A DNA stretch of 58,896 bases from an uncultured Candidatus Bathyarchaeia archaeon (GTDB lineage: Archaea > Thermoproteota > Bathyarchaeia > Bathyarchaeales > Bathyarchaeaceae). Shown here piece after piece: positions 7,908 to 39,783 of this stretch; position 1 is the stretch's first letter; every line of letters begins with the position of its first letter. The stretch is from NCBI GenBank assembly GCA_964618655.1, contig CAZUFG010000001.1:1-58896 (forward strand). Direction: 5' to 3'. The notes beneath the pieces were generated by a model. That model did not search any database, was not told where the DNA came from, and worked only from the letters and a program-made list of their open reading frames with translations. Made by a program: the position numbers and the translations under genes.

Positions 7908-7934
7908 TTATAAGGCTTCTGGAACTAACTTCTA
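7908..7934 (-). promoter_or_regulatory. Island promoter: TATA (TTATAA, 7908-7913) plus box TAGAAGTTAGTTCCA (7920-7934)
   Basis: The gap between box and TATA is 6 nt. The TATA box lies 48 nt upstream of ATG 7860. The SD-like sequence GGAGAAGGTGG precedes the ATG. Confidence 0.6.
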
Positions 7935-11113: not shown

Positions 11114-11141
11114 TTACTAAAGCTTTTGGAACTAATTTCTA
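11114..11141 (-). promoter_or_regulatory. Island promoter: TATA-like TTTAGTAA (11114-11121) plus box TAGAAATTAGTTCCA (11127-11141)
   Basis: The gap is 5 nt. The TATA box lies 44 nt upstream of ATG 11070. Confidence 0.55.
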
Positions 11142-13171: not shown

Positions 13172-13198
13172 ATTTAAGTGTTCCGGAATTATCTTCTA
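13172..13198 (-). promoter_or_regulatory. Island promoter: TATA (TTAAAT, 13172-13177) plus box TAGAAGATAATTCCG (13184-13198)
   Basis: The gap is 6 nt. The TATA box lies 48 nt upstream of ATG 13124. Confidence 0.55.
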
Positions 13199-25358: not shown

Positions 25359-28300
25359 CTAGTACTTATTTCCGAAGTTGTTTGCGATTAGGATGAAGTC
25401 AAGAATGTTTATTTTGTTGTCTCTGTTGATATCGGCTAGTGAATTCCATTTTGGATGGCTTGGGTAAGAGCCGAAAGCAGATGAGGCTAAAATACAGTCT
25501 AATATGTTAACGGTTTTGTCATTGTTCACATCGCCTACCATTTTGAGTTTAACATAACCATCAATGAAGACATTATTATCTTGATCAGTTTCTCCAGGAA
25601 CAACGCTGGCTTCAGCCCACATTGTGTAATTGACGTAAAGTTGCAGACCTGTAGTGTTCCAACAGAATGTTAAAGTCATCTCTTCGCCAGTATGTAGATC
25701 AAAAACGGTTTTTGTTTCTATAGGTGTGCTCTCGTAGTAGGCGGTGACGGTGAAGGTTTCAGTTGAGTTCCCGACGTTTTTAGCCGTAACATTGATAGAA
25801 ATCATCCAGCCTGCGTAAGCTTCTGTTACGGATGGAACAACGCTAATTACCGCCACATCACGCATTAACGGAATAGTCATTGCAACCTCCGCTAAACCGT
25901 CAAGGGAACTGTGGGAAATGATCTCCCCCTCTGGATCCGCGAGTATCGTTTCACAGAGGTCTAATATGGAGTTACCTAATTCTCTAGCTTTGAATTGGAC
26001 TGTCACCAATATCCCGCTTCCAGTTTTCCCCGTTTCATTGCCTACATAATTGAACAACGAGAATGCAAAGTGTATACAACCATGTGTAGCATTGTATGCG
26101 TTGTTAGTCTCATTTATCCACACGTATATGTTGCGCGGATCAATTTCAGGCGTCAGAAAGTGTCCTGCTGGAAGCGTAACGCCACGTCCTTCTAAGATGT
26201 CGTTTTTATAAAACAGCTTGAACTCATATCCATAGAGATCTGAGACATCAGTGACTGTTATGTTTATCGTGAAGACTTCATCACGTATTACTATGCTTTG
26301 TATAGGGTCTATAGAAATGTATGTTCCTGTTACGGTGAACACCTGAACACTCATCATCACAACATTGTTTTTTGTGATAGCCTCGTCGTGAACTGGAGGT
26401 GCGTAAGCTGTCACGTTATATATGCCTTCAACTGTTGGGGTCCATAGATAGTTTAGCACATAGGAGGAATTGACTAACAATTCGGGAATCATTGCAGAGG
26501 CAACAATGCTACCATTAATTAGTAGATACAATTCTAAACCGGTTTCGTTACTTAGCCCATCGTTATAAACCGTTGCTTTAAGAATTGTCGGGGTGTTAGG
26601 CTTAAGACGTGGAGGCGCCCTCAATGAAACCACGAGCTCGTGTTCGTATCGAACGGGAGGAGGACGATATAGGATAACCCATTCGATCATATTTGTTAGA
26701 AGCTTCTCGGCTCCTATTCTGTCTTCATAGTAAAGGTGCCAGTCTGGGTCTTGTTGGGTTATTACGATCCGTCCACTGCCATATGTGGTTGCTAGCGTAA
26801 TCGGCGCTGAGATTTCTATACCCCATGCCAATGCCTTCCAAACATGGTGGACAAAGAATCCGTGGTAGGACATGCCCCAATTGCTAAGTTGAGCGTCGGT
26901 CAAACTGAACATAACAGGGTGGGTCGGGTCGAGAATCTGAACATTGTTTCCAGCAAATCCGTACGAGTTAACCCATAACGGGAGCCAATCCCACCTATTG
27001 CTCTCATAGAACTCCGAGAGGGCAACAATTCCGTTGCCAGCAGCCACCCAATCTGCTATCTCTGATGCACGGGCAAGCAACGCATCAACCACAGCGTCTC
27101 CTGGGCTCCATCCAACGAACAAAACGTTATACTGATACAGGTCAACTGTGGCAAATTCAGCTGGCGTGACTAAAGTATAGTTGTATCCCAACATGTCGAG
27201 GGCACCAGTATCCTCAGGCCAAGGCGTATCGACCACTAAGAGTCTTGGCGGATAGCGAACATGCACCATCTCGCTTACAACATTATTTGCTGTGTAGGTT
27301 TCGTTAAGTACCGAAGGTGCATATGCTGTAACATTGTATGTTCCCCCTATTGTTGGAGTCCACAGACAACTGAATGTAAAAGACTGCCCAGTTAACAAAT
27401 CTGGAACTATCACAGAGTTAAGGACGGTGCTATTAATCATCAACTGCAACTCCACGTTGGTTTCGTTGTTTAGTCCTTGGTTGTGAACAGTCGCATTAAG
27501 CATAACTGAAGTATCAGGCTCCAAGAATGCTGGAGCCTCTAGAGTCAAAGCAAGGTCATGCTGATATCGAATGTATGGTGTAGCCCATTCGATCATGTTT
27601 TTTAAAAGCTTCCCGGCTCCAAGTACATCGTTGTAGTAAAAGTGAAAGTCTGGGTCTTGATCAGTTATCACAATTCGTCCACTGCCGTACGTTGCCGCCA
27701 ACGTGATGGAGTAGCCAGCTTCTATTCCCTGAGCCAACGCCGTCCAATCTGCATGATAGCTGTAGAAGTAGCCATGATATGAGAACGACCAATAGCTAAG
27801 TTCAGCGTCGGTCAGATTGAACAGCACAGGGTGGGTTGGATCGAGAATGTGAACATTGTCTCCAGTATATCCGTACGAGTTAACCCATAACGGGAGCCAT
27901 GCCCACCTATTGCTCTCGTAGAACTCTGACAGGGCAACAATTCCGTTGCCAGCAGCCACCCAACCTGCGATTTCCGATGCGCGGGCAACCAACGCATTGA
28001 CTACATCATCTCCTGGCGTCCAACCAACGAATAGGATGTTAAACCTGTAAAGGTCGACTGTAGCGAATTCAGTTGGTGAGACTAATGTGTATTCGTATCC
28101 TAATCTATCAAGAACACCTGTGTCCTCAGGCACCGGAGTATCGATAACTAAGAGTTTTGGTGCACATCGGACACGCACCATCTGGGTTGCCACATTATTC
28201 TCCATGACCTCTTCACCAGGCACTGGAGGTGCATAGGCTGTCACGTTGTATGTTCCTTCAACAGTTGGGACCCAAAGATAGCTTAGCCTATAAGACTCTC

Positions 28301-31300
28301 CTACGAGTAGTTCGGGAATGACGACGAAATTAACAATAGTGCCATTAATCATTAATTGTAGCTCAACACTAGTCTCATTGTTCAATCCAAAGTTGCGGAC
28401 AGTTGCGTTCAGCAGCACCGAATTAATGGGCTCAAGAGAGGCTGGAGCCTTTAAAGTTACGGCGACATCATGTTCATATTTTTTGGGCATGTAGAGTAAA
28501 CTGTTTTCTAGTATTAGGCTGAGGCGGCGCTTGTAGGCCCATTCAAGCGTTTGGGACGAAGCGACTATGAAGCCTGACCCGTATCCAAATTCTAAGTATG
28601 CTGGCATTCTTGTGGAATCTTCAATTATTATGATATGAGCATCTGCGGGATAGACACTGAAGTATCCATGTACTGCATAATTCCAATTGTCAAGTTCCGC
28701 TTCGGTGATCATGTTAGGCGTGGTCAACACGGGATGCGTTGGATCCACAACAGTAACATATTGCCCATAGTAACTGGCCCACTGCAACCCTCCAGGGAGC
28801 GGACCCACCCATCGTCCACCATGCCAGCCTCCGTCTGCCGCATGAATCTCCAATATGCCACCATTATTCACGTAATCCTCAAACCACCATCGATAAGTAT
28901 CCATGCCATCGTAGAAGGCCTGATCCTGGTCCGAAGCGATGACTACTTTTGTAAAAGTGCTTAAATTAACTCTGCCAAAATCGCTTGAACTAAACACAAC
29001 ATAGGGAACGCCGTAACGGTCAAGAGCTTCCTCATTTGATGGATAGTCCCACGGGTTCCAATTCTGAAACAAAGCCACAATAAGAGTAGAAACAATGACT
29101 TTTACTGATTTGACGTTGTTTGTTATGTCATCTTCGCCATACACCGGAAAAGCATAAGCTGTTATGTTGTATATTCCTTCAATAGTTGGAGTCCAAAGAT
29201 GGCCAAGGGTGTAAGAATCTCCAGCCCATAGCTCTCGAATCGTGGTTGAGTCAACGATAGCATCGTTAATTAATAATTGGAGTTCTACATTGGTTTCGTT
29301 ACTCAATCCCATATTTGAAACGGTCGCGTTCAATAACGCAGATTGGCCTGGTTTAAGCGCTTCCGGCGCTTCCAAAGACACGCCTAGTTCATGTTGAGGC
29401 TTTTGGTAACGTGACCATGTTATGGCGTTGTATAGTAGTTGCAGGTGATGGTGATAGTAGGCTGGTATAACTTCTAGCCATGGAGAAATGTACACTAAGC
29501 CTCTGTACGTGACTATTGCGCTTTCTTGATAGTGCCCAAGTGCAAGATATTTGCCCTCCACCAATTCGTTTGAATCCCATCGCCCGTCGAAAGGAAGTGC
29601 AGTTCCGACTTGTGGAAAAACCAGCGGGTTTGGAACATTAGCGAAGATAGGATGCGTTGTGTTCACTAGATGCAAAAGATCCGTTTGCGTTGCACTCCAC
29701 GTTGCGGTTTCGTTCATCCCAAACAGTGGTGCAAGCTTGTTGTTGTTTGGAACCCAGTAATAAAGCGTTCCCGCCGTGGCTATTAGACCGTGCCCCTCAA
29801 GAACATATCGTTTGATTGCTTCGATTTCAGAGTCTATGAACTGCCACCCCATCCCAGGATCGTAGGCACACGAAATAATCAAAACATCTGCTTCTGTCGA
29901 GGCAATATCCTCGTAGGTGATAACCTCTTTGTTTAAAGTCGTATAATCAATGTAGACCATGGTGTCGCCAAACATATGCCATTCATTGTTCAGCACTTGC
30001 CAATTAGTGATTATGTTGCCTTGAATGTTGCCTGCAGAATGCAACACAACAGCCTTCAACGGAAATCCAACATAGACATATTTCCAGACTACATTGTTTT
30101 CCACACTTGTTTCGCCGGGCACTGGCACCACGTAAAGCGTAACGTTGTATAATCCTTCAACTGTTGGATTCCATGTGAGACTAACTGATGTCGAGTTCCC
30201 ACTGGCAAGGGAGCCTATCAACGTAGAGTCTACCACGGTGTCGTTTGCTAGCAGTTGCACTGATACATCGGTTTCGTCATTATCTCCGAAATTAAGTATA
30301 GTAGCGTTTACGATTGCTAAAGCACCAGGTTCCACATAGGGCGGGGTTCTCCATTCATAAGCTATCATTTCATGGGCTGCCGGAGTCTGCTCCACAGCCT
30401 TTCTCGCGTTTATTCTTCCATATCCATAGTATACGTCGAAACCAGGGTCGCCCAAGTCATTAGCGGTGTATCGTAGCCACAGCCTCACCCAATCTCGTGT
30501 CTTGTTTGGATAGCGGCTCCATACAAGGGCAGCCACGCCCGAAACATGCGGAGTAGCCATGGAAGTGCCACTCCAAGACTCATAACCCCAAGGAACCGTT
30601 GAATGTATGGAGACTCCAGGTGCGGCTAGTTCAATCCATTCACCCCAGTTTGAAAATGAAGCTTTGCTGTCATACTGATCTGTCGCAGCCACAGCGATGA
30701 CTTCGTCGTAGCCTGCTGGATACAGCTTCATGTTTGTATTGTCATTTCCTGCAGCTGCGATCACCAGCACTCCGGCGTCATAAGCATACCTAACGGCCTC
30801 ATGTACTAGTTCGCTGTCGCTATACCCTCCTAAGCTCATGCTAATTATGTCAGCTCCGCTGTCCGTCGCGTTTATGATGCCATTTGCAATCCAGTCCCAG
30901 TATCCCCCGCCAGCGTTGTTTAAAACTTTTTCAGCCATAATCCGAACTTGCGCCAGCCCAGCAATGCCTATGCCATTATTTAAAACAGCTGAAATTATGC
31001 CTGCGCAGTGAGTGCCGTGGCCGTGATCATCCCAAGGGTCAGCATCCATATTCACCCAATCGTAGCCCAGGGCGACATAGTTTGCTGCAAGGTCAGGGTG
31101 GGTGTAGTCGATGCCTGTGTCGACAACAGCTACAAGAACTGAGGGGTCGCCTACCGTTGTGTTCCATGCCCAATCCGCCTCTATCTTCTGCGGCCCCCAT
31201 TGCAGGTTCCAATATGGGTCGTTTGGAACAAATTGAGCTTGAACCTTCATGTCGGGCTCTACGTAGCTTGCTAACCCTACAGTGTGTACCTCTTCTACAA

Positions 31301-31754
31301 AAGCCGTCACCGACGCTAATAAAAGCTCGACAACCGCCGCCCTAACTTGGCCTCCAATTGAAACAGTGTTAACAATTTCAGCTTGGTGTTTAGCCGCTAT
31401 TTTCTCTAGTTCAAGGAAGCTGGTAGGTTCCTCGCTGTCGACTCCAACTATTAGTCTAGTCTTATTGCCGTCTATGTAGGCGAATTTGCTCCATTCGCTT
31501 GTGCTGTTGAAGTCCCATTTATCCCCGCTATCGCGCGAAGTCTGACTGGGGCTTTCTAAAGTCTCCTCTTGACTGGCATCTGGTTTACTTTCAAAAACAT
31601 TTCGCTGGTTTTTATCAAAACTTTCCGGAAAATCCTTACCGAGAATACCGTTTTCATCGTTTTCTGCCAATGATGGCTTTGCGGTAAATGCTATGCTTAA
31701 CGTGCTCATGAGAATTAATGTCAACATTAGAAGACTGATTATTCTCTTTTTCAT
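25359..31754 (-). CDS. Giant secreted S8 subtilisin-family protease. Domain order: I9-like propeptide, S8 domain, four (CARDB + ~200-aa alpha/beta module) units, a further CARDB, a cohesin, a CARDB and a class C dockerin.
   Basis: 2131-aa ORF with a signal peptide. The catalytic triad lies in VAVVDTGIDYTHPDL (Asp212, about nt 31119-31121), HGHGTHCAGII and SGTSMATPHVSG. The S8 domain spans about 30375-31232. CARDB-like units read LNATV.N.G.NNET.VELQL..N...V......L..G.S......W.PT.EG.YN.T.Y. Cohesin: FTINITVTDVSDLYGYEFKLFYKNDILEGRGVTLPAGHFL...GSGILVTVQFKA (about 25900-26340). Confidence 0.85.
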   Translation of the reverse strand: MKKRIISLLMLTLILMSTLSIAFTAKPSLAENDENGILGKDFPESFDKNQRNVFESKPDASQEETLESPSQTSRDSGDKWDFNSTSEWSKFAYIDGNKTRLIVGVDSEEPTSFLELEKIAAKHQAEIVNTVSIGGQVRAAVVELLLASVTAFVEEVHTVGLASYVEPDMKVQAQFVPNDPYWNLQWGPQKIEADWAWNTTVGDPSVLVAVVDTGIDYTHPDLAANYVALGYDWVNMDADPWDDHGHGTHCAGIISAVLNNGIGIAGLAQVRIMAEKVLNNAGGGYWDWIANGIINATDSGADIISMSLGGYSDSELVHEAVRYAYDAGVLVIAAAGNDNTNMKLYPAGYDEVIAVAATDQYDSKASFSNWGEWIELAAPGVSIHSTVPWGYESWSGTSMATPHVSGVAALVWSRYPNKTRDWVRLWLRYTANDLGDPGFDVYYGYGRINARKAVEQTPAAHEMIAYEWRTPPYVEPGALAIVNATILNFGDNDETDVSVQLLANDTVVDSTLIGSLASGNSTSVSLTWNPTVEGLYNVTLYVVPVPGETSVENNVVWKYVYVGFPLKAVVLHSAGNIQGNIITNWQVLNNEWHMFGDTMVYIDYTTLNKEVITYEDIASTEADVLIISCAYDPGMGWQFIDSEIEAIKRYVLEGHGLIATAGTLYYWVPNNNKLAPLFGMNETATWSATQTDLLHLVNTTHPIFANVPNPLVFPQVGTALPFDGRWDSNELVEGKYLALGHYQESAIVTYRGLVYISPWLEVIPAYYHHHLQLLYNAITWSRYQKPQHELGVSLEAPEALKPGQSALLNATVSNMGLSNETNVELQLLINDAIVDSTTIRELWAGDSYTLGHLWTPTIEGIYNITAYAFPVYGEDDITNNVKSVKVIVSTLIVALFQNWNPWDYPSNEEALDRYGVPYVVFSSSDFGRVNLSTFTKVVIASDQDQAFYDGMDTYRWWFEDYVNNGGILEIHAADGGWHGGRWVGPLPGGLQWASYYGQYVTVVDPTHPVLTTPNMITEAELDNWNYAVHGYFSVYPADAHIIIIEDSTRMPAYLEFGYGSGFIVASSQTLEWAYKRRLSLILENSLLYMPKKYEHDVAVTLKAPASLEPINSVLLNATVRNFGLNNETSVELQLMINGTIVNFVVIPELLVGESYRLSYLWVPTVEGTYNVTAYAPPVPGEEVMENNVATQMVRVRCAPKLLVIDTPVPEDTGVLDRLGYEYTLVSPTEFATVDLYRFNILFVGWTPGDDVVNALVARASEIAGWVAAGNGIVALSEFYESNRWAWLPLWVNSYGYTGDNVHILDPTHPVLFNLTDAELSYWSFSYHGYFYSYHADWTALAQGIEAGYSITLAATYGSGRIVITDQDPDFHFYYNDVLGAGKLLKNMIEWATPYIRYQHDLALTLEAPAFLEPDTSVMLNATVHNQGLNNETNVELQLMINSTVLNSVIVPDLLTGQSFTFSCLWTPTIGGTYNVTAYAPSVLNETYTANNVVSEMVHVRYPPRLLVVDTPWPEDTGALDMLGYNYTLVTPAEFATVDLYQYNVLFVGWSPGDAVVDALLARASEIADWVAAGNGIVALSEFYESNRWDWLPLWVNSYGFAGNNVQILDPTHPVMFSLTDAQLSNWGMSYHGFFVHHVWKALAWGIEISAPITLATTYGSGRIVITQQDPDWHLYYEDRIGAEKLLTNMIEWVILYRPPPVRYEHELVVSLRAPPRLKPNTPTILKATVYNDGLSNETGLELYLLINGSIVASAMIPELLVNSSYVLNYLWTPTVEGIYNVTAYAPPVHDEAITKNNVVMMSVQVFTVTGTYISIDPIQSIVIRDEVFTINITVTDVSDLYGYEFKLFYKNDILEGRGVTLPAGHFLTPEIDPRNIYVWINETNNAYNATHGCIHFAFSLFNYVGNETGKTGSGILVTVQFKARELGNSILDLCETILADPEGEIISHSSLDGLAEVAMTIPLMRDVAVISVVPSVTEAYAGWMISINVTAKNVGNSTETFTVTAYYESTPIETKTVFDLHTGEEMTLTFCWNTTGLQLYVNYTMWAEASVVPGETDQDNNVFIDGYVKLKMVGDVNNDKTVNILDCILASSAFGSYPSHPKWNSLADINRDNKINILDFILIANNFGNKY
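25362..25535 (-). other. Dockerin module, class C
   Basis: GDVNNDKTVNILDCILASSAFGSYPSHPKWNSLADINRDNKINILDFILIANNFGNKY. Confidence 0.9.
26643..28472 (-). repeat. Two tandem ~915-bp coding repeats inside the protease gene (26643-27560 and 27561-28472). More divergent copies lie at 28473-29393 and 29394-30374.
   Basis: The encoded ~305-aa units, HDLALTLEAPAFLEPDTSVMLNATVHNQGLNNETNVELQLMINST... and HDVAVTLKAPASLEPINSVLLNATVRNFGLNNETSVELQLMINGT..., are collinear. Long stretches are identical, for example AAGNGIVALSEFYESNRW.WLPLWVNSYG. Near-identical DNA runs occur at about 27025-27085 and 27930-27990. Confidence 0.85.
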
Positions 31755-31805: not shown

Positions 31806-31831
31806 CTTAAATTTTTTGTGACTTTCTTCTA
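31806..31831 (-). promoter_or_regulatory. Island promoter of the protease gene: TATA-like AATTTAAG (31806-31813) plus box TAGAAGAAAGTCACA (31817-31831)
   Basis: The layout is the same as at the other island promoters. The TATA box lies about 52 nt upstream of ATG 31754. SD-like sequence: GAGGAGAAAGGAAA. Confidence 0.5.
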
Positions 31832-31944: not shown

Positions 31945-34569
31945 TTAAGGATCTGGCCTTACTTCTCCGAAGTGATTGGCTATCAGTATACAATCGAGGA
32001 TGTTTACGACTTTATCGTGGTTTATGTCTGCCAGTGGGTTCCAGCGTGGATGACTTGGGCGGGTTCCAAAAGCGCCAGCTAAAATAATACAATCTAGTAT
32101 GTTGGTTCTTCCATCGAAGTTCAAATCGCCCATTGAGGTTGGTACTATGTCGTAATATCCATGTTCCACGTCGTGTGAGATTGTGTTTGATTCGGTGTCG
32201 CCGAGTATGGTGTCAAACAATGTCAGGTTGCATGAGAGTATTGGATTTTCTAAGCCCATGAGTTGATATTTAACCCTGAATGTTATCGTTGCTAGGGTCC
32301 CGTTCCCGCTTGGGAATGTTGTCCAGTTGCCTATTCCTGTGCCTTGAGGAATTAGCAGGATTCCTAGTTGAACGTAGTCTTCTTCTATGATTGGGCCATA
32401 ATAGAGGGTTTCGCCGGCTTGTTCCATGAAGGTGCCGTTGGATACTTCAACGATCTCCAGAAGGGTTGTGTTATAGCGGAGCTTAAACTCTACACCAACA
32501 AGTTTCCATGCCCAACTTAGACCATTGATGGTTATGTTGATGTCGAAGGTTTCGCCTAGTTGCTTGGCGTGGTAGGTTGGAGGCTCCACTTTTAGTAGTG
32601 GGCTGGGTAGCGGCTTTGGATAATCCAGCCATGGGTCATACAGAACATAATCGCTGACATCGTCGCCTAAACCGTAATGCGGGCCATAGGGTTGTCCCAT
32701 GTAAAGCCAGCTTGTCTCATGATACGGTCCAGTTGCGTCGCCCCACCAATTGTAGCGGGCGTCAAAGGTTACATTGTTGCCAGCGTAGTCGGGGTCTTGG
32801 ATAACGCCGTATTCTCTGTTGTTGTAGATGTTGTTGTAGTTGGCGTATGAGTACGAGTTTGCGACTACTTCAATTCCGTAGTAGTTGTTATAAATGTCGT
32901 TGCAGCTCATAACAACCGTAGAAGATGGCAGATCATAGAAAGCTACCCATCCGTCAATTACTATGCCAGCAGAAGACCAAGATGGTGATGGATGCGTATT
33001 GTCGCAGTTGTATATGTCATTTCCAAGAATTTCAACATCGCATGGTTCGTTCCAAGGCTCTATTTCAATTCCATAGTTAACGTAGTCTTGATCGCTGTAG
33101 ACTTGACCTTCTATAATACAGCTGTATACTCCACCGCTACAACCGTCATAGAAGAACACTCCTATTCGCCCAAAGTTTTTGACTGTGCATTTCCCTGACG
33201 CTTACATCTGAGCCATCCCAAATTCCAATAGCGCTACCAACCATGTCGCCAATGGTATTTGGAGATATTATGCAACCTCTGATTGTTCCTATCGACTCTT
33301 CGTATATAACTCCATAATTTTTACCGGGGCCTAATCCCTGTCCTTCGATATCCAAGTGCCACAAGGTTACGACAGCATTCTCGACAAAAATCACTGCTTC
33401 TCTGGTTCCATAGTTAGTGGTGAATGAACCGCTCCCTTGGACTATAGGAAGGCTTGCGCCAATTATGGATATATTCTTGTTTATGTATAATGCTTCGTTG
33501 TATGTGCCTTCATGCACCATTACTGTGTCGCCTGGGCTTGCTTCGTCTATAGCCTCTTGAATAGTTCCAGTTGGGTTTACATGATAAGTTCTTGGAGTAG
33601 TTTCAAAGGTTGCGCCGAGCCATGGACTGTAATCAACATAGTCGCTGATGGCGTCTCCTGTGCCGCCTGGATTAGATGAATGCGTTGGACCGCTTGCGTC
33701 ACCCCACCAGTTAAAGCGAGCATCGAATATCTGACTTGAATCCCAGTTTCTGACACCTTCAGTGTTGCCATAGAGATTGTTGTAGTGTGCCGTGTTTCCA
33801 GGTCCGGGTTCATCTCCAGACCCAGTGTAGTATGGGGAGCCAGGCCCCAAGAGGTGGATTCCGTAGTAGTTGTCGTGGATTTGGTTGTATTCGATAACAT
33901 TGTAGGCGCATTCTGCTGCCCATTCTAGTTCTATGCCCTGAGAGCAGTCGTAAACTTCGTTACCGCGGACAGTGCTATAGCTGCTCGGACCTATACCAAT
34001 GTCATTGTCGTATACCTCGTTGTACTCAATTATGACCCCGTCTTTTGCTGCATACCCCATTATGCCGCAACTCAACCATGTTGTTCCCGAATATTTATTG
34101 TTGGAGACTGTGTTGTAGCTAACAGTGCCTCCAGTCTCGAAAGCGAGGACTATGCCGTTTGGAACCTGATCCGGCCCGATTGTACCTGGGCCGACGATGG
34201 TATTGTCGTGTATGTCAACGGTCAGCTGAGCTCCTCGCGCTGTGATGCCGTTCTTGTTATAATAGCTGATGCGAGAATTCTCAACCTCTACCGAAACTGA
34301 GGTGCTGACGGCGTCCAGCCACATCCCATAGGTGCGAGTGGCAATTGGTACGCTGTTCATGTTAACGACCGTCACATCGTCTATGGTGCCAGCGGTCTCG
34401 CCATATGAGATGCCTACAACATAGTTTGCTCCTCCAGGGAGCCCATCTACGTTAACTCCATCCACTTTAAGATCTTCCACTGTGACACCCGCGGTTCCCA
34501 CGTTCTCGACGCTTATGATGCTTGCGAGCTCTTGGCCATTCCAGAAAGCTCCTGCCTGAGTCCCAAGAG
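31945..34569 (-). pseudogene. 3' fragment of a split parallel beta-helix (NosD/CASH-like) - cohesin (class B) - dockerin (class C) gene, also carrying a 1-nt frameshift
   Basis: Track ORFs 33146-34501 and 31945-33159 are consecutive pieces of one protein. The frame of the upstream piece stays open beyond the assigned GTG up to 34609, with no ATG, signal peptide or promoter. Beta-helix rungs and two (A/D)R(F/Y)NWWGDA(S/T)GP motifs are present. Cohesin: WKLVGVEFKLRYNTTLLEIVEVSNGTFMEQ...GNGTLATITFRV. The frames switch at the T3C3 run 33190-33195. Deleting one nt there gives ...GIWDGSDVSVRECTVKNFGRIGVFFYDG.... Confidence 0.7.
31948..32130 (-). other. Dockerin module, class C
   Basis: GDLNFDGRTNILDCIILAGAFGTRPSHPRWNPLADINHDKVVNILDCILIANHFGEVRPDP. 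Confidence 0.9.
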
Positions 34570-34575
34570 TATAAA

Positions 34576-34838
34576 ATGAGAAAGCAGCTCTTGCCGAGCG
34601 GCGCGTTGCTTATTGATAATCGAGTCGCTTGGGCGAGAACCTACCTTGGCAAGGCTGGGCTTATTGAAGGCACCAAGAGAGGTTTCTTCTCTTCACTGCT
34701 CAGGTTGAACGCATCTGAAACGTGCTCGATGGTCTCGCGCAAGGAATGCTCTTTTTCATCCCCAAGAAACCTCAGGAAAGGAAGCATCATATGCTCGTGG
34801 CTGGGAACGGTCATAGTTGAAAATATGTCACAGTGCAC
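34576..34838. pseudogene. Two convergent remnants of an Mrr-type restriction endonuclease N-terminal (Mrr_N winged-helix) domain. The catalytic domain is absent.
   Basis: Minus strand 34814 down to about 34694 encodes MTVPSHEHMMLPFLRFLGDEKEHSLRETIEHVSDAFNLSSEE (compare E. coli Mrr MTVPTYDKFIEPVLRYLA...). Plus strand 34576 to 34689 encodes MRKQLLPSGALLIDNRVAWARTYLGKAGLIEGTKRGFF (compare E. coli ..SGQLVYKNRAGWAHDRLKRAGL...). These are the first and second halves of one domain, encoded on opposite strands and meeting at about 34690. Confidence 0.65.
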
Positions 34839-34950
34839 TTAAATGACTTTACAGTTTTCTGGCATTCGAACAATGTATAGAGACGCTCCGTTGCCACTTA
34901 TTGGAAGTCTAGGTCTTCTTCTGCTGTCCATGTTTCTTCACAGTCCGTGC

Positions 34951-35070
34951 ACAAGCCTACAGCATCCACAAAACACAAGTCACAAACCAATCCAGCCACA
35001 CTCCACACACTCACACAACCGATCAACAACTCTACCACAAACAGCACACTCACCCATCAGCAAACACCTA
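34951..35070. repeat. Strand-asymmetric low-complexity tract, C/A-rich on the plus strand and G/T-rich on the minus strand
   Basis: By my count these 120 nt contain 7 G and 12 T (101 A+C). An example stretch is cacaaaccaatccagccacactccacacactcacacaacc. It lies 3' of the 35143-35664 gene, after an oligo-T run (35096-35107 on the plus strand as a-runs). Confidence 0.7.
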
Positions 35071-35142
35071 AGACTAGGCTCTCCTCAGCGTGCCTAAAAT
35101 AAAAAAACATGATGTTGATGTGTATCGCTCGCGCAATGGCAA

Positions 35143-35664
35143 CTAAGCACCTTGTGGAGACGCTATGTATCCCACGAAATCTGCAAATATGCCGTTTGTC
35201 CCTGGATCAGCGTCCCTATACCAGTCCGTTCCCGTCATTTCAAGCTTCAACAGCAAACCCTCATAAGCAGCCGTACCATGGCCTTCAAGTTTACCCTGGA
35301 ATTGGATGTAGTTTGTGTCCTTCACCGTGAACATTCCTTCAAACGTGCCCTCAGCCCCAGAGATCGTGAACGAGCCAAAACCAACTCCTTCCCCGGTTTT
35401 CAAGCTGAAAACAGCATATAACACGATCTCTAACACTCCGGTCAAACGTGGATCCGAGCTTGCGATAGGCCCTGATGCTTCCGCACCCACTTGGCGCACC
35501 ATTCCACTCTTGAGAACATATATGTCACCTGGCCAAGTTGCAGTCATACTCATAGTTCCCGTGACCTCAGTTCGTACTGCAGGTGCAACTACAATTCCAG
35601 GCGCTGTGATCGATAGCGCTAGCAAAGCTACGATAACCATCAAAACTCTCCTCAAATCTCTCAC
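35143..35664 (-). CDS. Small secreted protein of unknown function
   Basis: 173-aa ORF. Signal peptide: MRDLRRVLMVIVALLALSITAPG. It has an island-type promoter upstream. The GTG start is overlapped by the SD-like GGGGAGGTG. Confidence 0.55.
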   Translation of the reverse strand: MRDLRRVLMVIVALLALSITAPGIVVAPAVRTEVTGTMSMTATWPGDIYVLKSGMVRQVGAEASGPIASSDPRLTGVLEIVLYAVFSLKTGEGVGFGSFTISGAEGTFEGMFTVKDTNYIQFQGKLEGHGTAAYEGLLLKLEMTGTDWYRDADPGTNGIFADFVGYIASPQGA

Positions 35665-35722
35665 CTCCCCTCTCTACTTCTCATAAACAGATAGAACCCG
35701 TGCAAAACCATGCTCTTTTTGC

Positions 35723-35750
35723 TTTAAAACACTTGTGAAACTATCTTCTA
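35723..35750 (-). promoter_or_regulatory. Island promoter: TATA-like GTTTTAAA (35723-35730) plus box TAGAAGATAGTTTCA (35736-35750)
   Basis: The gap is 5 nt. The TATA box lies about 59 nt upstream of start 35664. Confidence 0.5.
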
Positions 35751-35948
35751 GTGGCACGCACTAATACCCGGATAATTTGTGTGTTTGCGTGTGTAGCGCG
35801 CCCAAGATTACACTTTAATTGGGCTTTGACAACCTCAAAGTTCAACAAATCAAGAAGTAGGACCCGCGCGCTGCCTCTTGCCGATCACGGATGTGGCCTA
35901 AAAAAGAGGGGAGTTATGGAGATGTTGCCACTAAAACTTGGTCACTCA

Positions 35949-36878
35949 TCAGACTGCAGGGTTGAATATGTGCGGTGGAACACCATCATATGCGCGATTC
36001 TCGCCAAGATTTCTGGAGATGACGTTGTAGTTTACCAATTCTGGGGGATAGCAGAAAACGAAATCATAACTGCTTCTTCTGAGATCGTTGAAACCAATCA
36101 TGTTGCCTAACATATACGTCTGCGGAGGTAGCGTTTGATTCCATGCAGCCATTGCTATGGCGAATGTCCACCCAATCCAACCTGTCATCACAATTCTGTT
36201 GTGAACAACTTTGTTACCCGTCACCTGCCCTCCCCACGATGACAGGGCGATGCCAGCATTGATGTCGATGCTGACAGGGAAGTCCGCGGTTATTTTGTTG
36301 AAGGCAACAAGATTATCATTGGCTGGAAGATTGAGTATCCAAGATGAGACGATCCAGATTCCTAATCCTCCAGTAGTAAGATTCGTCAGTCCATTTATGT
36401 CATTATATCTTATGACCCATCTGTTGCCACACACGCATGTAACTCCCTGGAAAGGCGCATTCATAATGTTGTGCTCAACAGTCACTTCGTCAACAACTCT
36501 ACCAAAGACTGGCAGGTCCACAAAAAACGTAAATCCGCTTATGGTTGCCCCACTCGAGGTCCATGCCTCAAGAAAGAACCCTATGTTGATTGTGGAATCC
36601 AAACCGTAGGGCGGCCCATCCACGATGACTGCTCCGCCTTCTCCCATGATTTCGACAGACTTGTTCACTATTGCCCCGTAATATTCGCCAGGTCCAACAA
36701 TGATTTTGTCTCCTGGCAGTGCGGAGTTAATAGCCTCTTGAATGGTTGGATAATTATCTGGAACTTTGATTATCTTTGGTTCGGCACCTACTGACACTGT
36801 AGCTATGGTTACGGTCAGCAGAAACACGGTCATTATTGTTGCCAATGCACGTGATGCATTTCTTGTTTCTATTCTCAT
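35949..36878 (-). CDS. Secreted parallel beta-helix (NosD/CASH-like) protein
   Basis: Track ORF 35949-36902 starts at TTG. I prefer ATG 36878 (MRIETRNASRALATIMTVFLLTVTIATVSVGA), which has GAGGA 8 nt upstream. The N-cap motif YPTIQEAINSALPGDKIIVGPGEYYGAIVNKSVEIMG is typical of the family. Confidence 0.7.
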   Translation of the reverse strand: MRIETRNASRALATIMTVFLLTVTIATVSVGAEPKIIKVPDNYPTIQEAINSALPGDKIIVGPGEYYGAIVNKSVEIMGEGGAVIVDGPPYGLDSTINIGFFLEAWTSSGATISGFTFFVDLPVFGRVVDEVTVEHNIMNAPFQGVTCVCGNRWVIRYNDINGLTNLTTGGLGIWIVSSWILNLPANDNLVAFNKITADFPVSIDINAGIALSSWGGQVTGNKVVHNRIVMTGWIGWTFAIAMAAWNQTLPPQTYMLGNMIGFNDLRRSSYDFVFCYPPELVNYNVISRNLGENRAYDGVPPHIFNPAV

Positions 36879-36924
36879 TTTTAAATCCTCTTGAACATTC
36901 AAACAACTATTACGTATGCAGTAG

Positions 36925-36951
36925 TTATATGCCTACTGAAACTATTTTCTA
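36925..36951 (-). promoter_or_regulatory. Island promoter: TATA (ATATAA, 36925-36930) plus box TAGAAAATAGTTTCA (36937-36951)
   Basis: The gap is 6 nt. The TATA box lies 47 nt upstream of ATG 36878. Confidence 0.55.
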
Positions 36952-37008
36952 TAATCTTCCTCCACATCTAAAAGCGCGCGCTAGCTCACGTTACTGAAAG
37001 CGCACACT

Positions 37009-37413
37009 TCACTTCTTTCTGAGCTCGTTGTTTCTGCATGTGTAGCAGCGTAGGCCCTGAATCCAAGCTTGAGAAAGGCGACAGTAAACTTTGCCGTCGC
37101 TTGTAGCTCCGGCTAGGTGAAGCCAACACAACACCCGCATCGGACTAGCAGCAGCAGAATCCAAGTACGTAGCAATCTTCAACTGCGGATTACCCTCACC
37201 ATGACGCCGATTATACTCCTTCACAGCATTCATCAACACTTTACTAAAGCCTCTAGAACCAGCTTCACGCCTAGCGATTTCCCTAAACTGCACAAAATCC
37301 GCCACATCACAAGGCTCAACAGAAAAACTGGAAACAAAAGCCTTCGTCAAACTGGATGCTGATGCGAAAACGCTATGAAGCAAATGGAACAACAAGCGCC
37401 ATACTACAAACAA
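37009..37413 (-). CDS. Small hypothetical protein, possibly ribbon-helix-helix-like at the N-terminus with a Cys-rich C-terminus. The start is uncertain.
   Basis: The 134-aa track ORF has a TTG start and no internal ATG near the N-terminus. SSFSVE-DVADFVQFREIARRE-GFSKVLMNAVKEYNRRH fits a strand-helix-helix pattern. The C-terminus has four Cys (VLCW...VYCRLSQAWIQGLRCYTCRNN). A shorter TTG start (..TKAFVSSFSV) is plausible. Confidence 0.4.
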   Translation of the reverse strand: MFVVWRLLFHLLHSVFASASSLTKAFVSSFSVEPCDVADFVQFREIARREAGSRGFSKVLMNAVKEYNRRHGEGNPQLKIATYLDSAAASPMRVLCWLHLAGATSDGKVYCRLSQAWIQGLRCYTCRNNELRKK

Positions 37414-37541
37414 ACACTTTCAGAGAACATCCATACGAAATAAGCACTATTTTGATAGACCTTCCAGACGCTTCCATAAACATTCTTGTCAAAGGTAACA
37501 ACAAAATAGCTCAATGGCTCTGGAAGCTCATAACAGATGAC

Positions 37542-38321
37542 TTAAAGAGAGGTCAATTTGTCGGTTCCAGAAGGCTGGATGATGGTGGTGTTGCCGGTGC
37601 CTTGGAGCGTTAGGCTCGTATTGATGACTACCTGTTCGTCATAAGTTCCCTCGTAGGCGTATATTGTTTGTCCTGGGGTTGCAGCGTTTACGGCTGCTTG
37701 AATTGTGTCGAAGAAGCTGGCTGGGTCAAGTTCTGCCGTGTTCCAAATGGTTAAGTCAATCTTTACTGGCCAATCACCAACAGAGATTATGACATCGCCT
37801 GGAGTATAGCTTTGGCTAAGATCCCAATCTTCAAAGACGATTACTTCAATATCTGTTGGTCCAATGCCAGCAGGGCGGTTAACGATTGTCTTGATATAGG
37901 TAGTGCTTGAGAAGCCAGGTAGTAAGTAATAGTTGGGAGCACCAACAATCAACTCCAATTGATAGCCTGGATAAAGCGTCGGACACACGACAGGTCCAGC
38001 CGGCCACCAAGTAATGCCATCAAGTGACCACAGAAACGTTAAGTCTGCAGGAATAATTCCCGGACCGACATTTTCTCTGTAGAAAACTCCGGTAAGCCAT
38101 GGTGCTGGTGGGCTTCCACCAACGTTCGTTACAGTTCCCTTTACTGTGACTTTTGAGCCTGCAGTAGCGCCTAGTGTCGCATAAATTTGATTTGCAGCGT
38201 CGTTTACTATTAGGCTTGGCCCAGTTACGCTAGCTTCAACAGGTTTTACGTTTAGTATGAGTGGCATCGTGCTTAAGAGAAGCATTAGAAGCATTGATAT
38301 CGATACTAACTGCTTTTTCAT
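37542..38321 (-). pseudogene. 5' fragment of the split beta-helix/cohesin/dockerin gene: signal peptide, ~190-aa beta-rich domain and the first beta-helix cap, then a premature stop at the insertion boundary
   Basis: 259-aa ORF. Signal peptide: MKKQLVSISMLLMLLLSTMPLILNVKPVEA. It ends ...FFDTIQAAVNAATPGQTIYAYEGTYDEQVVINTSLTLQGTGNTTIIQPSGTDKLTSL*, that is directly after the N-cap motif that opens multi-rung beta-helices in its paralogues. Confidence 0.6.
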
Positions 38322-38370: not shown

Positions 38371-38396
38371 TATTAATTTTATGGAAAAATTTTCTA
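38371..38396 (-). promoter_or_regulatory. Island promoter: TATA-like AAATTAATA (38371-38378) plus box TAGAAAATTTTTCCA (38382-38396)
   Basis: The TATA box lies about 50 nt upstream of ATG 38321. SD-like sequence: GAGGAGAAAGGAGAA. Confidence 0.5.
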
Positions 38397-38839: not shown

Positions 38840-38854
38840 AGAAACTATTTTCTG
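38840..38854. promoter_or_regulatory. Orphan copy of the island palindromic box (minus strand CAGAAAATAGTTTCT), about 50 nt upstream of the TATA box of the wHTH-TM-cohesin gene
   Basis: Its centre matches the 36937-36951 box (AGAAAATAGTTTC). No TATA box sits at the usual offset on the minus strand. This position would suit autoregulation of the divergent plus-strand gene. Confidence 0.35.
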
Positions 38855-38946: not shown

Positions 38947-39783
38947 ATGCCTCAAGTAAGATGTCCACATTGTGGAACAACTATGAATTTGGAGAATCGC
39001 AGAGAAACGGATTTCAGCCTTATTCTAGGGGCGTTACATAGCAGAGAGAGAAGTTTTTCGGAACTGCTTAGAATAACTGGATTGCCTAGAAAAACTCTTT
39101 ACCTCAGACTAAAGGAACTATGCAAGACAGATGCCATTATCAAAAATAAACTATACTACTTGAATGAGGCAAACCCCCATAAAGAATGGGAGAAAAAAAT
39201 AATGCCCGGAAATTCAAGACTACTTAATAACAAAAAAGCAATAGTGCTACTCTTACTCCTATGCATAGGTCTACCAGTAACTACAAACGTTATTGCCACG
39301 TTCTTCCAAAGTCCACCTCCGACGCCCTCTGAACCAGAACCTTTAGGCTACCTCACCGCAATTGTAACAGCAAATAATGTTTCAAATGTTTATGGCTGGC
39401 AAGTGGGTTTACGTTTCAACTCCACAAACCTCAAAGTTATAGACGTTAGACCTGGAGGCTTCCTTACAGAAACAGAACAAAACACCGACGTTGCTCAAAA
39501 TGAGACGTCAGGTTATGAAATTACAAAGAAGACTCTATTCTGCTATAACACGATCGACAGCGACATATTACTTATTGGTCAGACTTTGTTGGGAGAGGAC
39601 ACTTCTGAGACAAATCATAGTGGTCCTTTGGTGATCATAAAATTTGGATACTACTATGCGTATCAAGAACCTGAGCTCATCTTGAATGAAAACCTTGGAT
39701 ATTACAATACAATGCTTCTAAGAGCGGATTGCTCAGAAATCCCACTAAATGAAAACACAATAACCATACGTTGCTTGCCTTAA
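38947..39783 (+). CDS. Membrane-tethered putative transcription regulator: CPHC knuckle, winged HTH (cytoplasmic), a single TM helix, a Pro-rich linker and an extracellular cohesin-like domain
   Basis: 278-aa ORF. N-terminus: MPQVRCPHCG. The wHTH-like segment is RSFSELLRITGLPRKTLYLRLKELCKTDAIIKNKLYYL (about 39004-39172). A basic stretch NNKK precedes the TM helix AIVLLLLLCIGLPVTTNVIATFF (39238-39306). The linker is QSPPPTPSEPEP. The cohesin-like domain reads LGYLTAIVTANNVSNVYGWQVGLRFNSTNLKVIDVRPGGFL...GPLVIIKFGY (39343-39780) and has the same core pattern as the island cohesins. Confidence 0.65.
   Translation: MPQVRCPHCGTTMNLENRRETDFSLILGALHSRERSFSELLRITGLPRKTLYLRLKELCKTDAIIKNKLYYLNEANPHKEWEKKIMPGNSRLLNNKKAIVLLLLLCIGLPVTTNVIATFFQSPPPTPSEPEPLGYLTAIVTANNVSNVYGWQVGLRFNSTNLKVIDVRPGGFLTETEQNTDVAQNETSGYEITKKTLFCYNTIDSDILLIGQTLLGEDTSETNHSGPLVIIKFGYYYAYQEPELILNENLGYYNTMLLRADCSEIPLNENTITIRCLP

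Follow-up and report, generated by a model that had tools for sequence, protein, structure and literature searches.

A surface-protein gene of a Bathyarchaeia-like archaeon, split by a patchwork of gene pieces

Insertion sequences and composite transposons with a 9-bp target-site duplication include, for example, those of the IS1 and IS4/IS10 types; a duplication of about 9 bp is likewise expected where cryptic ends are used by a transposase supplied in trans. The TnpB elements of the IS200/IS605 family, to our knowledge, produce no target duplication and have no terminal inverted repeats. Insertional pseudogenes and complex insertions can arise by microhomology-mediated template switching (FoSTeS/MMBIR), including short template switches and inversions of the U-turn type (e.g. 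PMC5453318, PMC4417113), or by end joining that captures filler DNA. Template switching and end joining have been described chiefly in eukaryotes and E. coli; they are not known from Bathyarchaeia, nor is biochemical evidence for them known in this lineage.

The locus described here, found in a stretch of 58,896 nucleotides ("the window"), resembles the products of template switching or end joining with filler DNA in several respects: the insert junctions show microhomologies of 2-4 nt, one contiguous piece of the donor is inverted at the insert edge, the target duplication is short, element-specific ends and a recombinase are missing, and another locus bears the signature of a further such event. 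It differs in that no donor locus was recovered, so that copying as opposed to ligation, and the number of events, are inferred. As in an IS or composite transposon, a gene is interrupted, about 9 nt of target are found on both sides and passenger genes lie inside; unlike these elements, the insert carries neither transposase nor terminal inverted repeats and ends in truncated genes, while its duplication matches at 7/9 positions only and might in part be donor sequence. The locus resembles IS200/IS605 TnpB elements in that a 99.6% identical copy of the central 1273 bp adjoins a TnpB ORF at three other loci, and in the missing terminal inverted repeats, but the window contains no TnpB, TnpA or omega-RNA-like sequence. 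With integron cassettes and skin/nifD elements the locus shares promoter-plus-gene or gene-sized units in varied contexts and a coding sequence that may be rejoined in frame; in contrast to them, the insert has no integrase, recombinase or attC-like sites, only one of the two boundaries of its 1273-bp unit falls in a promoter box, and the restored gene is still frameshifted.

The two halves of the gene and the break point

On the evidence of their homologues, the segments 37542-38321 and 31945-34609 are the halves of a single former gene of about 1134 aa, split by inserted DNA (Table 1). Its product is a secreted protein, composed of a signal peptide, an N-domain, two beta-helix modules, a cohesin and a dockerin, and the gene is a member of a surface-protein regulon marked by a promoter box. 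The sequence-only reading had described the first segment as a 259-aa minus-strand ORF with a promoter, a signal peptide and a first cap before a stop: a signal-peptide-like N-terminus, a beta-helix cap end and an upstream box were all found. Its account of the second segment, as ORFs carrying rungs, a cohesin and a dockerin but no start or signal peptide, agrees with the domain matches (Beta_helix/NosD, Cohesin and Dockerin_1) in the startless minus-strand frames 34609->33146 and 33159->31945, which contain no signal peptide.

Table 1. Features of the split gene and of its insert, in order of window position
Feature	Position	Strand	Description
C-fragment, part 2	31945..33201	-	remaining beta-helix module 2, cohesin, type I dockerin
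Frameshift, GTCAGGGAAATGC region	33197..33205	-	divides the 451-aa from the 404-aa ORF; in all assemblies
C-fragment, part 1	33200..34571	-	remainder of beta-helix module 1 (YTLGTQAGAFWNG...), then cap with first rungs of module 2
C-side 9-mer CTCATTTTA	34572..34580	-	same 9 nt in intact L007 and L012; retained target begins here
Next 111 nt of the Mrr_N gene, inverted	34579..34689	+	RKQLLPSG...TKRGFF, profile ~38-75
5' part of Mrr-type restriction endonuclease gene	34690..34838	-	Mrr_N profile 3 to ~37, ending ...FNLSSEE
G/T-rich tract (C/A-rich on plus)	34898..35100	-	holds a 51-aa Cys-containing ORF; GC skew -0.5
Second secreted-protein gene (165/173 aa)	35143..35750	-	own box at 35736-35750
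1273-bp promoter-plus-gene unit	35742..37014	-	box 36937-36951; secreted small beta-helix protein, 309/317 aa, at 35949-36878/36902
RHH-like and 4-Cys small gene p134	37009..37413	-	conserved core, 37015 to ~37345, complete
Small-gene fragment	37356..37542	+	family P0251 (68 aa), P0252 (85 aa), 73% identity; 5' intact, 3' cut at junction
N-side 9-mer CTCTCTTTA	37543..37551	-	7/9 copy of target 9-mer; ambiguous origin: target copy or donor microhomology
N-fragment	37552..38321	-	signal peptide, lineage-specific N-domain of ~170 aa, first beta-helix cap ending ...IIQPSGTDKLT
Promoter-type box TAGAAAATTTTTCCA, then TATA-like run	38382..38396	-	60 nt upstream of N-fragment ATG

The pieces keep their original order and orientation, as first proposed. 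Five intact homologue loci cross the break, and uninterrupted homologues exist both as such loci and as full-length single genes. The N-domain is fused to beta-helix modules within single genes in five intact proteins (P0009, P0010, P0048, P0056, P0066) and runs uninterrupted into such modules in a 1457-aa ORF (L008), directly downstream of which an S8 peptidase orthologue is found, as in the window; L006 likewise holds a full-length single gene, and in all relatives the domains lie within one ORF. Part 1 of the C-fragment is 84.5-89% identical, at the DNA level, to the five loci L004, L005, L007, L009 and L012. The frameshift in the 3' half, overlooked by the sequence-only reading, falls where homologues read ...DxSDLTVDPCIIKNFGRIGVF... 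through in one frame.

Alignment to the intact homologues places the break in a 9-nt zone, at codons ...T-S-L/F-Y.... The same five loci read ...TTGAC CTCATTTTA TACTCTTGGG..., unbroken at this codon; in the window, ...TTGAC CTCTCTTTA is followed by the insert, and the insert by CTCATTTTA TACTCTTGGG.... The N-side 9-mer forms, with the first insert base, a TAA stop (37544-37542); the sequence that continues the small gene in L046 matches it at 7/9 positions as well. Because the two 9-mers differ at two of nine positions, the sequences do not establish a clean target duplication; donor sequence explains the N-side 9-mer equally well.

The corrected fusion aligns without gaps to seven intact homologues, reading ...LTS[SLF]YTLGTQ... 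across the break. The insert measures 2962-2971 bp, where 2975 bp had been claimed. The earlier figure was based on AAGAG, which is indeed present on the plus strand at 34565-34569 and 37545-37549, but is neither a target duplication nor an insertion scar: as indicated by the intact homologues, CTCTT occurs twice in the ancestral coding sequence (TCT CTT TAT ACT CTT GGG). AAGAG/CTCTT is found 186 times in the window. The fusion of ...LTSL to GTQ... derived from it is in frame, but loses three codons (YTL) and needs a 3-residue gap. Nor is the alignment to an internal paralogous segment gap-free, as had been stated: the BLASTP alignment has 20 gap positions over 120 columns, and one of its gaps, of 11 residues, comes directly after the junction. 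At the true insert ends no exact repeat exceeds 4 nt.

Composition of the insert and second copy of its central unit

Rather than a tidy mobile cassette, the insert is a mosaic made up of pieces of genes, with internal breakpoints. Its contents had been correctly listed: Mrr_N remnants are recognized by profile match, the C/A-rich tract is located at about 34940-35080, the 15-nt island-type box TAGAARATAGTTTCA stands before each of the two secreted-protein genes, the small gene is confirmed as RHH-like with four Cys, and a search for a recombinase and for terminal inverted repeats found neither. What internal breakpoints and truncated genes contradict is the notion of one discrete cassette. 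At least two rearrangement junctions lie inside the insert, namely a head-to-head junction at ~37345-37385 and the inverted Mrr_N piece at 34579-34689, and both insert ends fall within gene remnants. When un-inverted, Mrr_N gives one contiguous match of 85.2 bits, where the two pieces taken singly score 34.6 and 41.4 bits; GATAATCGAG (34615-34624), in the inverted piece, is the sole copy in the window. At the head-to-head junction p134, which lacks an N-terminal region of about 55 aa present in its homologues (P0247-P0250, at 55-62% identity; L047 by tblastx), faces the small-gene fragment, related to L046 (1802-1965 against window 37388-37551, 75% identity by blastn). Homologues of the 165/173-aa gene (P0241-P0246, 63-81% identity) are found in unrelated chromosomal contexts. 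Transposase remnants were detected neither in ORFs of at least 40 aa nor in the short stretches between genes, and the insert has no integrase, TnpB or terminal inverted repeats.

Seven minus-strand secreted-protein genes carry the box. It lies 56-62 nt upstream of the start in six of them (N-fragment, S8 peptidase gene, three further island genes, 309-aa gene); for the seventh, the 165-aa gene, the distance from the ATG is 95 nt. Box matches number 12, against 4.7 expected. Since the box is common to the two secreted-protein genes of the insert and to the surrounding island, a local origin, as had been suggested, or a same-regulon one fits these two genes.

The 1273-bp unit has a 99.6% identical copy (5 mismatches) in L021, L022 and L023, in a different genomic context, immediately 3' of a TnpB-like gene. 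In L021 it is flanked by a 14-bp direct repeat, GATAATCGAGAAAA, and seems to have been inserted into the TnpB element, not carried by it as cargo. One unit boundary only, 35742, lies inside a promoter box, that of the 165/173-aa gene; this box is intact in the window and truncated in L021, and the window-type arrangement is therefore taken as the donor state. The mobility of a sub-part of the insert thus gains new support; as to the 3-kb cassette to be sought at other loci, this part was found, but the block that moved is not the whole insert.

Origin of the insertion

The pseudogene probably originated by illegitimate recombination, in which 2962-2971 bp of unrelated DNA entered the ~1134-aa gene with no self-contained element. 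Either serial microhomology-guided template switching (MMBIR/FoSTeS-like) or end joining of fragments would have copied or ligated the insert into place. The donor, which was not recovered, may have been a plasmid-like region or another chromosomal locus, with the putative order RHH/4-Cys gene, 309-aa gene, 165-aa gene, small ORF, Mrr. The inverted 111-nt piece may stem from a U-turn within Mrr_N, at the short inverted repeat GAAGA/TCTTC, and re-entry into the target via CTC/AG microhomology would have left 3 to 9 nt of target sequence duplicated. The 1273-bp unit, which overlaps this part of the donor, may have been captured a second time, independently, into the TnpB locus, where junction microhomologies of 2 nt and 4 nt and a target duplication of 10-14 bp carry the same signature as in the window. 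Microhomologies of 2-4 nt are, individually, slight evidence for a mechanism, and the junction between the small gene and p134 could be older than the insertion, in which case the patchwork would reflect several events, not one.

A decayed mobile element is an unlikely source, although it has points in its favor. A DDE-type transposase, acting in trans, would have left a 9-bp target-site duplication, since mutated at two positions, and later deletions and a small inversion would account for the loss of its transposase and ends and of most of the Mrr gene. The 9 nt of the target recur on both flanks at 7/9 identity, a sub-part of the insert adjoins a TnpB gene elsewhere, and some insert genes are element-like (the Mrr stump, the RHH/Zn-ribbon gene and the small ORF, whose relatives in L046 form an array of short same-strand ORFs). 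Against it stand the lack of terminal inverted repeats and of any transposase remnant in the ORFs and intergenic stretches searched, the position of both insert ends inside gene fragments and, as far as we know, the absence of target duplications in IS200/IS605-TnpB elements; moreover, two substitutions in 9 nt fit poorly with flanking pseudogene sequence that has only one frameshift in about 2.6 kb.

Very little speaks for a programmed intervening element of the skin/nifD kind, excised under some condition, or for two naturally separate genes: the junction may be reconstructed in frame and the N-fragment retains its promoter and an open frame, but the insert has no recombinase, its true ends share no exact repeat above 4 nt, the downstream frameshift would keep the restored gene inactive, no empty-site contig (which would read ...TTGACCTCATTTTATACTCTT...) was recovered, and every relative has the domains in one ORF. 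Equally improbable is a discrete local cassette of 2975 bp, bounded by AAGAG 5-bp repeats and moved by an unknown cassette mechanism. AAGAG at both positions, the island box on two insert genes and the 1273-bp unit, moved or copied between contexts, agree with it; yet the second CTCTT is ancestral gene sequence downstream of the break, the motif is frequent in the window, fusion at the repeats deletes YTL, conserved in all homologues, the block found elsewhere is of 1273 bp only, and internal breakpoints and truncated genes are present.

Both junctions are crossed, at 99.9-100% identity, by contigs that represent at least four samples and at least three kinds of assembly, which answers the concern about assembly chimerism. 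The matching arrangement is found in JGI 3300022551, ENA ERZ27245483, ENA ERZ781360 (coverage 77) and Logan SRR5215464, with no SNPs across 31945-38321; the spanning contigs are of MEGAHIT, SPAdes, JGI and Logan type, one being 73 kb long at coverage 77. It is hardly conceivable, then, that the gene halves are truly contiguous and the 3 kb mis-joined by the assembler: the 1273-bp unit is repeated in these metagenomes and a low-coverage contig (L023, coverage 3.6) resembles a hybrid of two contexts, but neither junction falls within the repeated 1273 bp, and both are spanned identically in different samples.

The 5' piece has kept its promoter and acquired a stop codon at the junction, while the 3' piece is startless and has since gained a frameshift. 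The split gene is now a fixed pseudogene; the frameshift attests its pseudogene status, and because of it excision of the insert would not restore a working gene. The case is one of ordinary gene decay, which has left an instructive scar.

The interrupted gene and its intact relatives

When the fused sequence of both gene pieces was used as the query in a homology search, intact proteins covering both sides of the break were found. P0009, P0010, P0048, P0056 and P0066 contain the same N-terminal domain and beta-helix modules in a single ORF, and P0002-P0008 share the first beta-helix module at 60-75% identity. At the DNA level, the locus L004 aligns to window positions 37685-37549 and then directly to 34580-33684; L005, L007, L009 and L012 cross the break in the same way. 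These collinear loci bear out the sequence-only reading, according to which the pieces belong, in order, to one split gene.

In the five intact loci the sequence across the break is ...TTGAC CTCATTTTA TACTCTTGGGACTCAGG..., and the variants CTCATCGTA and CTCACTCTA also occur. In the window, foreign sequence comes after ...TTGAC CTCTCTTTA in the 5' piece and before CTCATTTTA TACTCTTGGGACTCAGG in the 3' piece. Read side by side, the intact loci and the window pieces give the ancestral protein as ...DKLTS(L/F)YTLGTQAGAFWNG...: this corrected fusion aligns without gaps to seven homologues, whereas the LTSL/GTQ fusion first proposed needs a three-residue gap.

Full-length single-ORF relatives, which the same reading had suggested looking for in related genomes or metagenomes, include one at the partly syntenic locus L008: an uninterrupted 1457-aa gene with the same N-terminal domain, directly upstream of an orthologue (75% identity) of the window S8 peptidase. 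The context of P0010 (L050) is unrelated to the window and gives no synteny information. Identity to the homologues is 75-82% on the N side versus 85-89% on the C side. A derivation of the two halves from different paralogues was rejected, since a comparison of the homologues with one another shows the same regional differences: the lower N-side similarity reflects regional conservation, not separate origins. With intact genes crossing the break, the view that the pieces are naturally separate genes is scarcely credible.

The localization of the main features is reported in the table. For the ~170-aa domain of the N-fragment no Pfam match was found; the C-terminal end of this fragment, ...GTYDEQVVINTSLTLQGTGNTTIIQPSGTDKLTSL*, is the start of the beta-helix cap, and its TAA stop (37544-37542) is created at the junction. 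The 3' part has neither a start nor a signal peptide, and is further divided into calls of 451 and 404 aa by a frameshift in GTCAGGGAAATGC (~33197-33205), a point across which homologues stay in one frame. Pfam domains scoring above the gathering threshold in the broken gene are Beta_helix (86.5 bits), Cohesin (35.3) and Dockerin_1 (24.8). Given the junction-made stop, the start loss and the frameshift, the locus is very probably one gene disrupted by insertion and now a pseudogene. The frameshift is present in every assembly, and the 3' half is annotated at present as two genes; the 259-, 451- and 404-aa calls should be annotated as fragments of one pseudogene, not as three genes.

The exact 259-, 309- and 165-aa products are found, in the same gene order, in JGI 3300022551, ENA ERZ27245483, ENA ERZ781360 (a 73-kb contig with a coverage of 77) and Logan SRR5215464. 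All match the window at 99.88-100% identity and do not differ from it at any position within 31945-38321; the frameshift, too, is present in the JGI, ENA and Logan contigs. The split-gene structure is not an assembly artefact, and a chimeric join can be set aside. A single metagenome scan returned no empty-site contig, an absence which is no proof; an empty-site allele, if present, would read TTGACCTCATTTTATACTCTTGGG, or the same with CTCTCTTTA.

Features of the broken gene, the insert and the neighbouring genes. Positions are those of the forward strand of the window.
Feature	Position	Strand	Remarks
Promoter boxes	7920-7934, 11127-11141, 13184-13198, 31817-31831, 35736-35750, 36937-36951, 38382-38396	minus	
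S8 peptidase	25359-31754	minus	2131 aa; repeated CARDB-like modules, C-terminal dockerin; immediately downstream of broken gene
C-fragment, part 2 frame	33159-31945	minus	Beta_helix, Cohesin, Dockerin_1
C-fragment, part 1 open frame	~34609 to 33146	minus	No start codon; Beta_helix (86.5 bits), NosD
(e) Next 37 Mrr_N codons, inverted	34689-34579	plus	Profile ~38-75
(d) Second box, 165/173-aa secreted protein, G/T-rich tract, 51-aa ORF, Mrr start	35741-34690	minus	
(c) Promoter box and 309/317-aa secreted small beta-helix gene	37014-35742	minus	
(b) RHH-like + 4-Cys gene (p134)	~37385/37345 to 37009	minus	Core complete; P0247-P0250, 55-62% identity
(a) Small gene	37542-37356	plus	P0251/P0252 family, 73% identity; start intact, last 8-25 codons absent
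N-fragment ORF	37542-38321	minus	259 aa; signal-peptide-like start, ~170-aa domain, beginning of beta-helix cap
278-aa protein	38947-39783	plus	Divergent from broken gene; N-terminal CxxC, one transmembrane helix

Boundaries and composition of the insert

AAGAG does occur at 34565-34569 and 37545-37549, as originally reported. It is not a target duplication, because the pairing sets CTCTT of the N-side 9-mer against ACTCTT, which in the ancestral gene already followed the break point. The pentamer is common, with 83 copies, plus 103 of its complement, in the window, and a cassette delimited by this 5-bp repeat is most improbable. The true overlap is between the 9-mers CTCTCTTTA (37551-37543) and CTCATTTTA (34580-34572), identical at 7 of 9 positions, which could represent a 9-bp target duplication, later mutated. 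A homologue of the small gene, on contig L046, continues through the N-side 9 nt, also with 7/9 matches: the N-side breakpoint is therefore no more precise than 37543-37551, and the part of the target duplication that is certain may amount to no more than CTC. The insert measures 2962-2971 bp, versus the 2975 bp first claimed. Microhomology at the junctions consists of CTC/AG at the C side and the 9-nt similarity zone at the N side, short enough to have arisen by chance.

The insert had been described as a single cassette; it proves to be a mosaic of pieces, (a) to (e), comprising truncated genes and an inverted Mrr_N piece. The GC content shows no anomaly, and tRNA and Rfam scans of the window gave no matches. 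For the plus-strand ORF 37356-37613, which contains the fragment (a), a weak match to TIGR04255 (NCBIfam, E = 0.027) was dropped: the ORF belongs to a family of small genes of 68-85 aa. In L046 (1-2539) the small gene is one of seven short ORFs packed closely on the same strand, where stops and starts overlap; the array, which has no Pfam or PHROGs matches, looks plasmid- or virus-like. The upstream region present in its homologues is missing from the p134 gene, which is placed head-to-head with the small-gene fragment, leaving no room for promoters. Viral contig scans with the small gene, p134 and two junction oligonucleotides returned nothing, nor did PHROGs.

The 309-aa protein is a member of a widespread family of ~310 aa; a genome contig scan with it gave distant relatives only (25-63% identity, partial matches) and no second copy in one genome. 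Homologues of the 165-aa protein are found in unrelated chromosomal contexts (L031-L033), which give no synteny information. The tract between the 165-aa gene and the Mrr stump (34898-35100) has a GC skew of -0.5, being C/A-rich on the plus strand; it contains short CACACTCA repeats and, on the minus strand, a 51-aa Cys-containing ORF, for which no family match was found.

The Mrr_N remnants noticed from the sequence were confirmed by two matches. The stump in (d) holds the first ~37 codons of a Mrr-type restriction enzyme gene (profile 3 to ~37, 34.6 bits), and the inverted piece (e), scoring 41.4 bits, holds the next ones; set in the same orientation, they form one contiguous match of 85.2 bits over profile 3-75. 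A contiguous donor segment is thus partly inverted, with profile 3 to ~37 on the minus strand and ~38-75 on the plus. Neither the rest of the gene nor a Mrr catalytic domain is present elsewhere in the window. The donor would hold an intact Mrr gene, its 5' end corresponding to window 34838-34690 and continuing into AGAAAGCAGCTCTTGCCGAGC... on the same strand, with the 165- and 309-aa genes before it; no such contig was recovered by the metagenome scan or the contig look-ups.

The only recurring motif of the insert is a promoter box upstream of start codons. The 15-nt consensus, TAGAAnnTAGTTyCA, with GAAA/TTTC half-sites, is followed after 4-8 nt by a TATA-like run. It lies 56-62 nt upstream of the start in six minus-strand genes (the N-fragment, the S8 peptidase, the 309-aa gene and three other secreted-protein genes, with starts at 7860, 11070 and 13124); for the 165-aa gene the distance is 95 nt from the ATG, or 71 nt from an alternative GTG. 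Twelve matches are found in the window versus 4.7 expected, a number reached by 1 of 100 shuffles. The shared box suggests one regulon for the seven boxed genes for secreted proteins of cohesin/dockerin type, and the box common to the two inserted secreted-protein genes agrees with their earlier assignment to the regulon of the island. The 278-aa protein matches a winged HTH (HTH_20/HxlR) weakly, as it does a cohesin-like domain at its C-terminus, and may be a membrane-anchored regulator of the box regulon; at 38840-38854, ~95 nt upstream of its gene, the box recurs in a near-palindromic form, CAGAAAATAGTTTCT.

A second copy of the 309-aa unit at a TnpB locus

Three contigs assembled from other samples (L021, L022, L023) encode P0121, which shares 99% identity with the 309-aa protein. 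Their DNA is 99.6% identical to the window, with 5 mismatches, exactly over 37014-35742, and shows no identity outside. On one side of the 1273-bp unit is the 3' end of a TnpB-like ORF (domains Cas12f1-like_TNB and OrfB_IS605), and on the other a repeat-rich, probably structured region; nucleotidyltransferase and ferredoxin genes are found downstream. The region following the unit is rich in ATTGCAAG repeats, possibly an omega-RNA. tblastn of the L022/L023 TnpB against the window gave a match of 12 residues only, due to read-through into the shared unit.

The unit is bordered on both sides by GATAATCGAGAAAA, a perfect direct repeat of 14 bp (L021 1044-1057 and 2325-2338; also in L022). At the L021 junctions, donor and target share 2 nt (AA) and 4 nt (GATA), again short enough to be fortuitous; because of this microhomology, the net target duplication is 10-14 bp. 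When the unit and one repeat copy are removed, the TnpB ORF gains 13 codons, and the element at L021/L022 is probably disabled. The box preceding the 165-aa gene runs unbroken over position 35742 in the window and is cut after TAGAAGATA in L021, indicating that the window-type arrangement is the donor state and the copy at the TnpB locus the derived one.

The core of the 14-bp repeat is the 10-mer GATAATCGAG, present once in the 58.9-kb window (0.09 expected), at 34615-34624 on the plus strand, within the inverted Mrr_N piece; this sequence match hints that the insertion at the TnpB locus may originally have reached this point. On L023 (3.6x coverage) the TnpB context upstream is followed by window sequence extending 46 nt past 35742, where the contig ends (L023 2307-2352). 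Either L023 represents the insertion in a longer form, or the assembler joined two contexts across the 1.27-kb repeat. A longer form would imply an insertion of ~2.3 kb, joined at a 10-nt microhomology with the junction ...CTTATTGATAATCGAGAAAACGCC..., and L021/L022 would be deletion derivatives.

Perfect palindromes at contig ends (L021 1-40, L022 1-126), most likely assembler artefacts, generate spurious Rfam microRNA matches; the Rfam matches on these contigs, all of this kind, were rejected.

Origin of the insertion and its significance

The locus behaves like other insertional pseudogenes arising from illegitimate recombination: the gene is interrupted, the insert is a mosaic with an inverted donor piece at one end and short similarity at the joins, element machinery is absent, and a related event with the same signature is found elsewhere. 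Serial template switching or end joining of fragments would produce such an insert, and is put forward tentatively, as a specific mechanism at slightly less than an even chance. A U-turn inside Mrr_N might have occurred through GAAGA...TCTTC, a short inverted repeat with one arm at each end of the inverted piece, with a return to the target via CTC. Analogous template switches and U-turns are described for other systems (PMC5453318, PMC4417113).

A decayed transposon or other mobile element, leaving a mutated 9-bp target duplication, is the strongest competitor, yet an unlikely one. The two 9-mers agree at 7 of 9 positions, and the N-side copy fits the donor homologue equally well. Unlike DDE transposons and IS, the insert has no transposase gene or remnant and no terminal inverted repeats, as the sequence-only reading had observed for recombinases and inverted repeats: Pfam, NCBIfam and PHROGs scans of its ORFs revealed no transposase, integrase or TnpB, and 146 of 500 shuffles attained the best score found on aligning its two ends. 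It differs from IS200/IS605-TnpB elements in lacking tnpB and tnpA, and from tyrosine or serine recombinase elements in having no integrase domain and no direct repeats longer than 4 exact nt at its ends. Unlike integron cassettes, it has no attC-like inverted repeats, and no integrase is found in the called genes of 27.5-48.3 kb.

Recurrent, recombinase-independent copying of promoter-plus-gene units for secreted proteins between loci, in Bathyarchaeia-like archaea, is a still less probable reading. In its favour, overlapping parts of one donor region appear to have been captured twice, independently, as the 2.96-kb insert and as the 1.27-kb unit in the TnpB element. In both cases the joins show microhomology and the target duplication is short (3-9 nt in the first, 10-14 nt in the second); one boundary falls inside a promoter box of the regulon, and the single GATAATCGAG of the window, which matches the repeat at the TnpB site, is located in the insert. 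A dedicated mechanism might involve a nuclease making staggered cuts, with subsequent fill-in and capture, or illegitimate integration of a plasmid-like donor; if true, as opposed to chance repair errors, it would give this uncultivated archaeal phylum a new way of shuffling cassettes. Finally, a programmed intervening element of the skin/nifD type deserves little consideration, as there is no recombinase and the downstream frameshift would remain after excision.

In the literature on Bathyarchaeota cohesins and dockerins nothing specific to this locus was found. The locus reveals neither a new mobile element nor a new function; a modest interest is added by the signs that, in an archaeal lineage not yet cultivated, a single donor region was captured from twice, independently. 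To our knowledge, almost nothing is known of illegitimate recombination in archaea. The locus provides a well-resolved case of inactivation, in an uncultivated archaeon, of a large modular gene for a surface protein: with breakpoints placed at base level, intact homologues for reference and a related second event, it is useful for the study of illegitimate recombination in archaea and of gene gain and loss in the cohesin/dockerin island.
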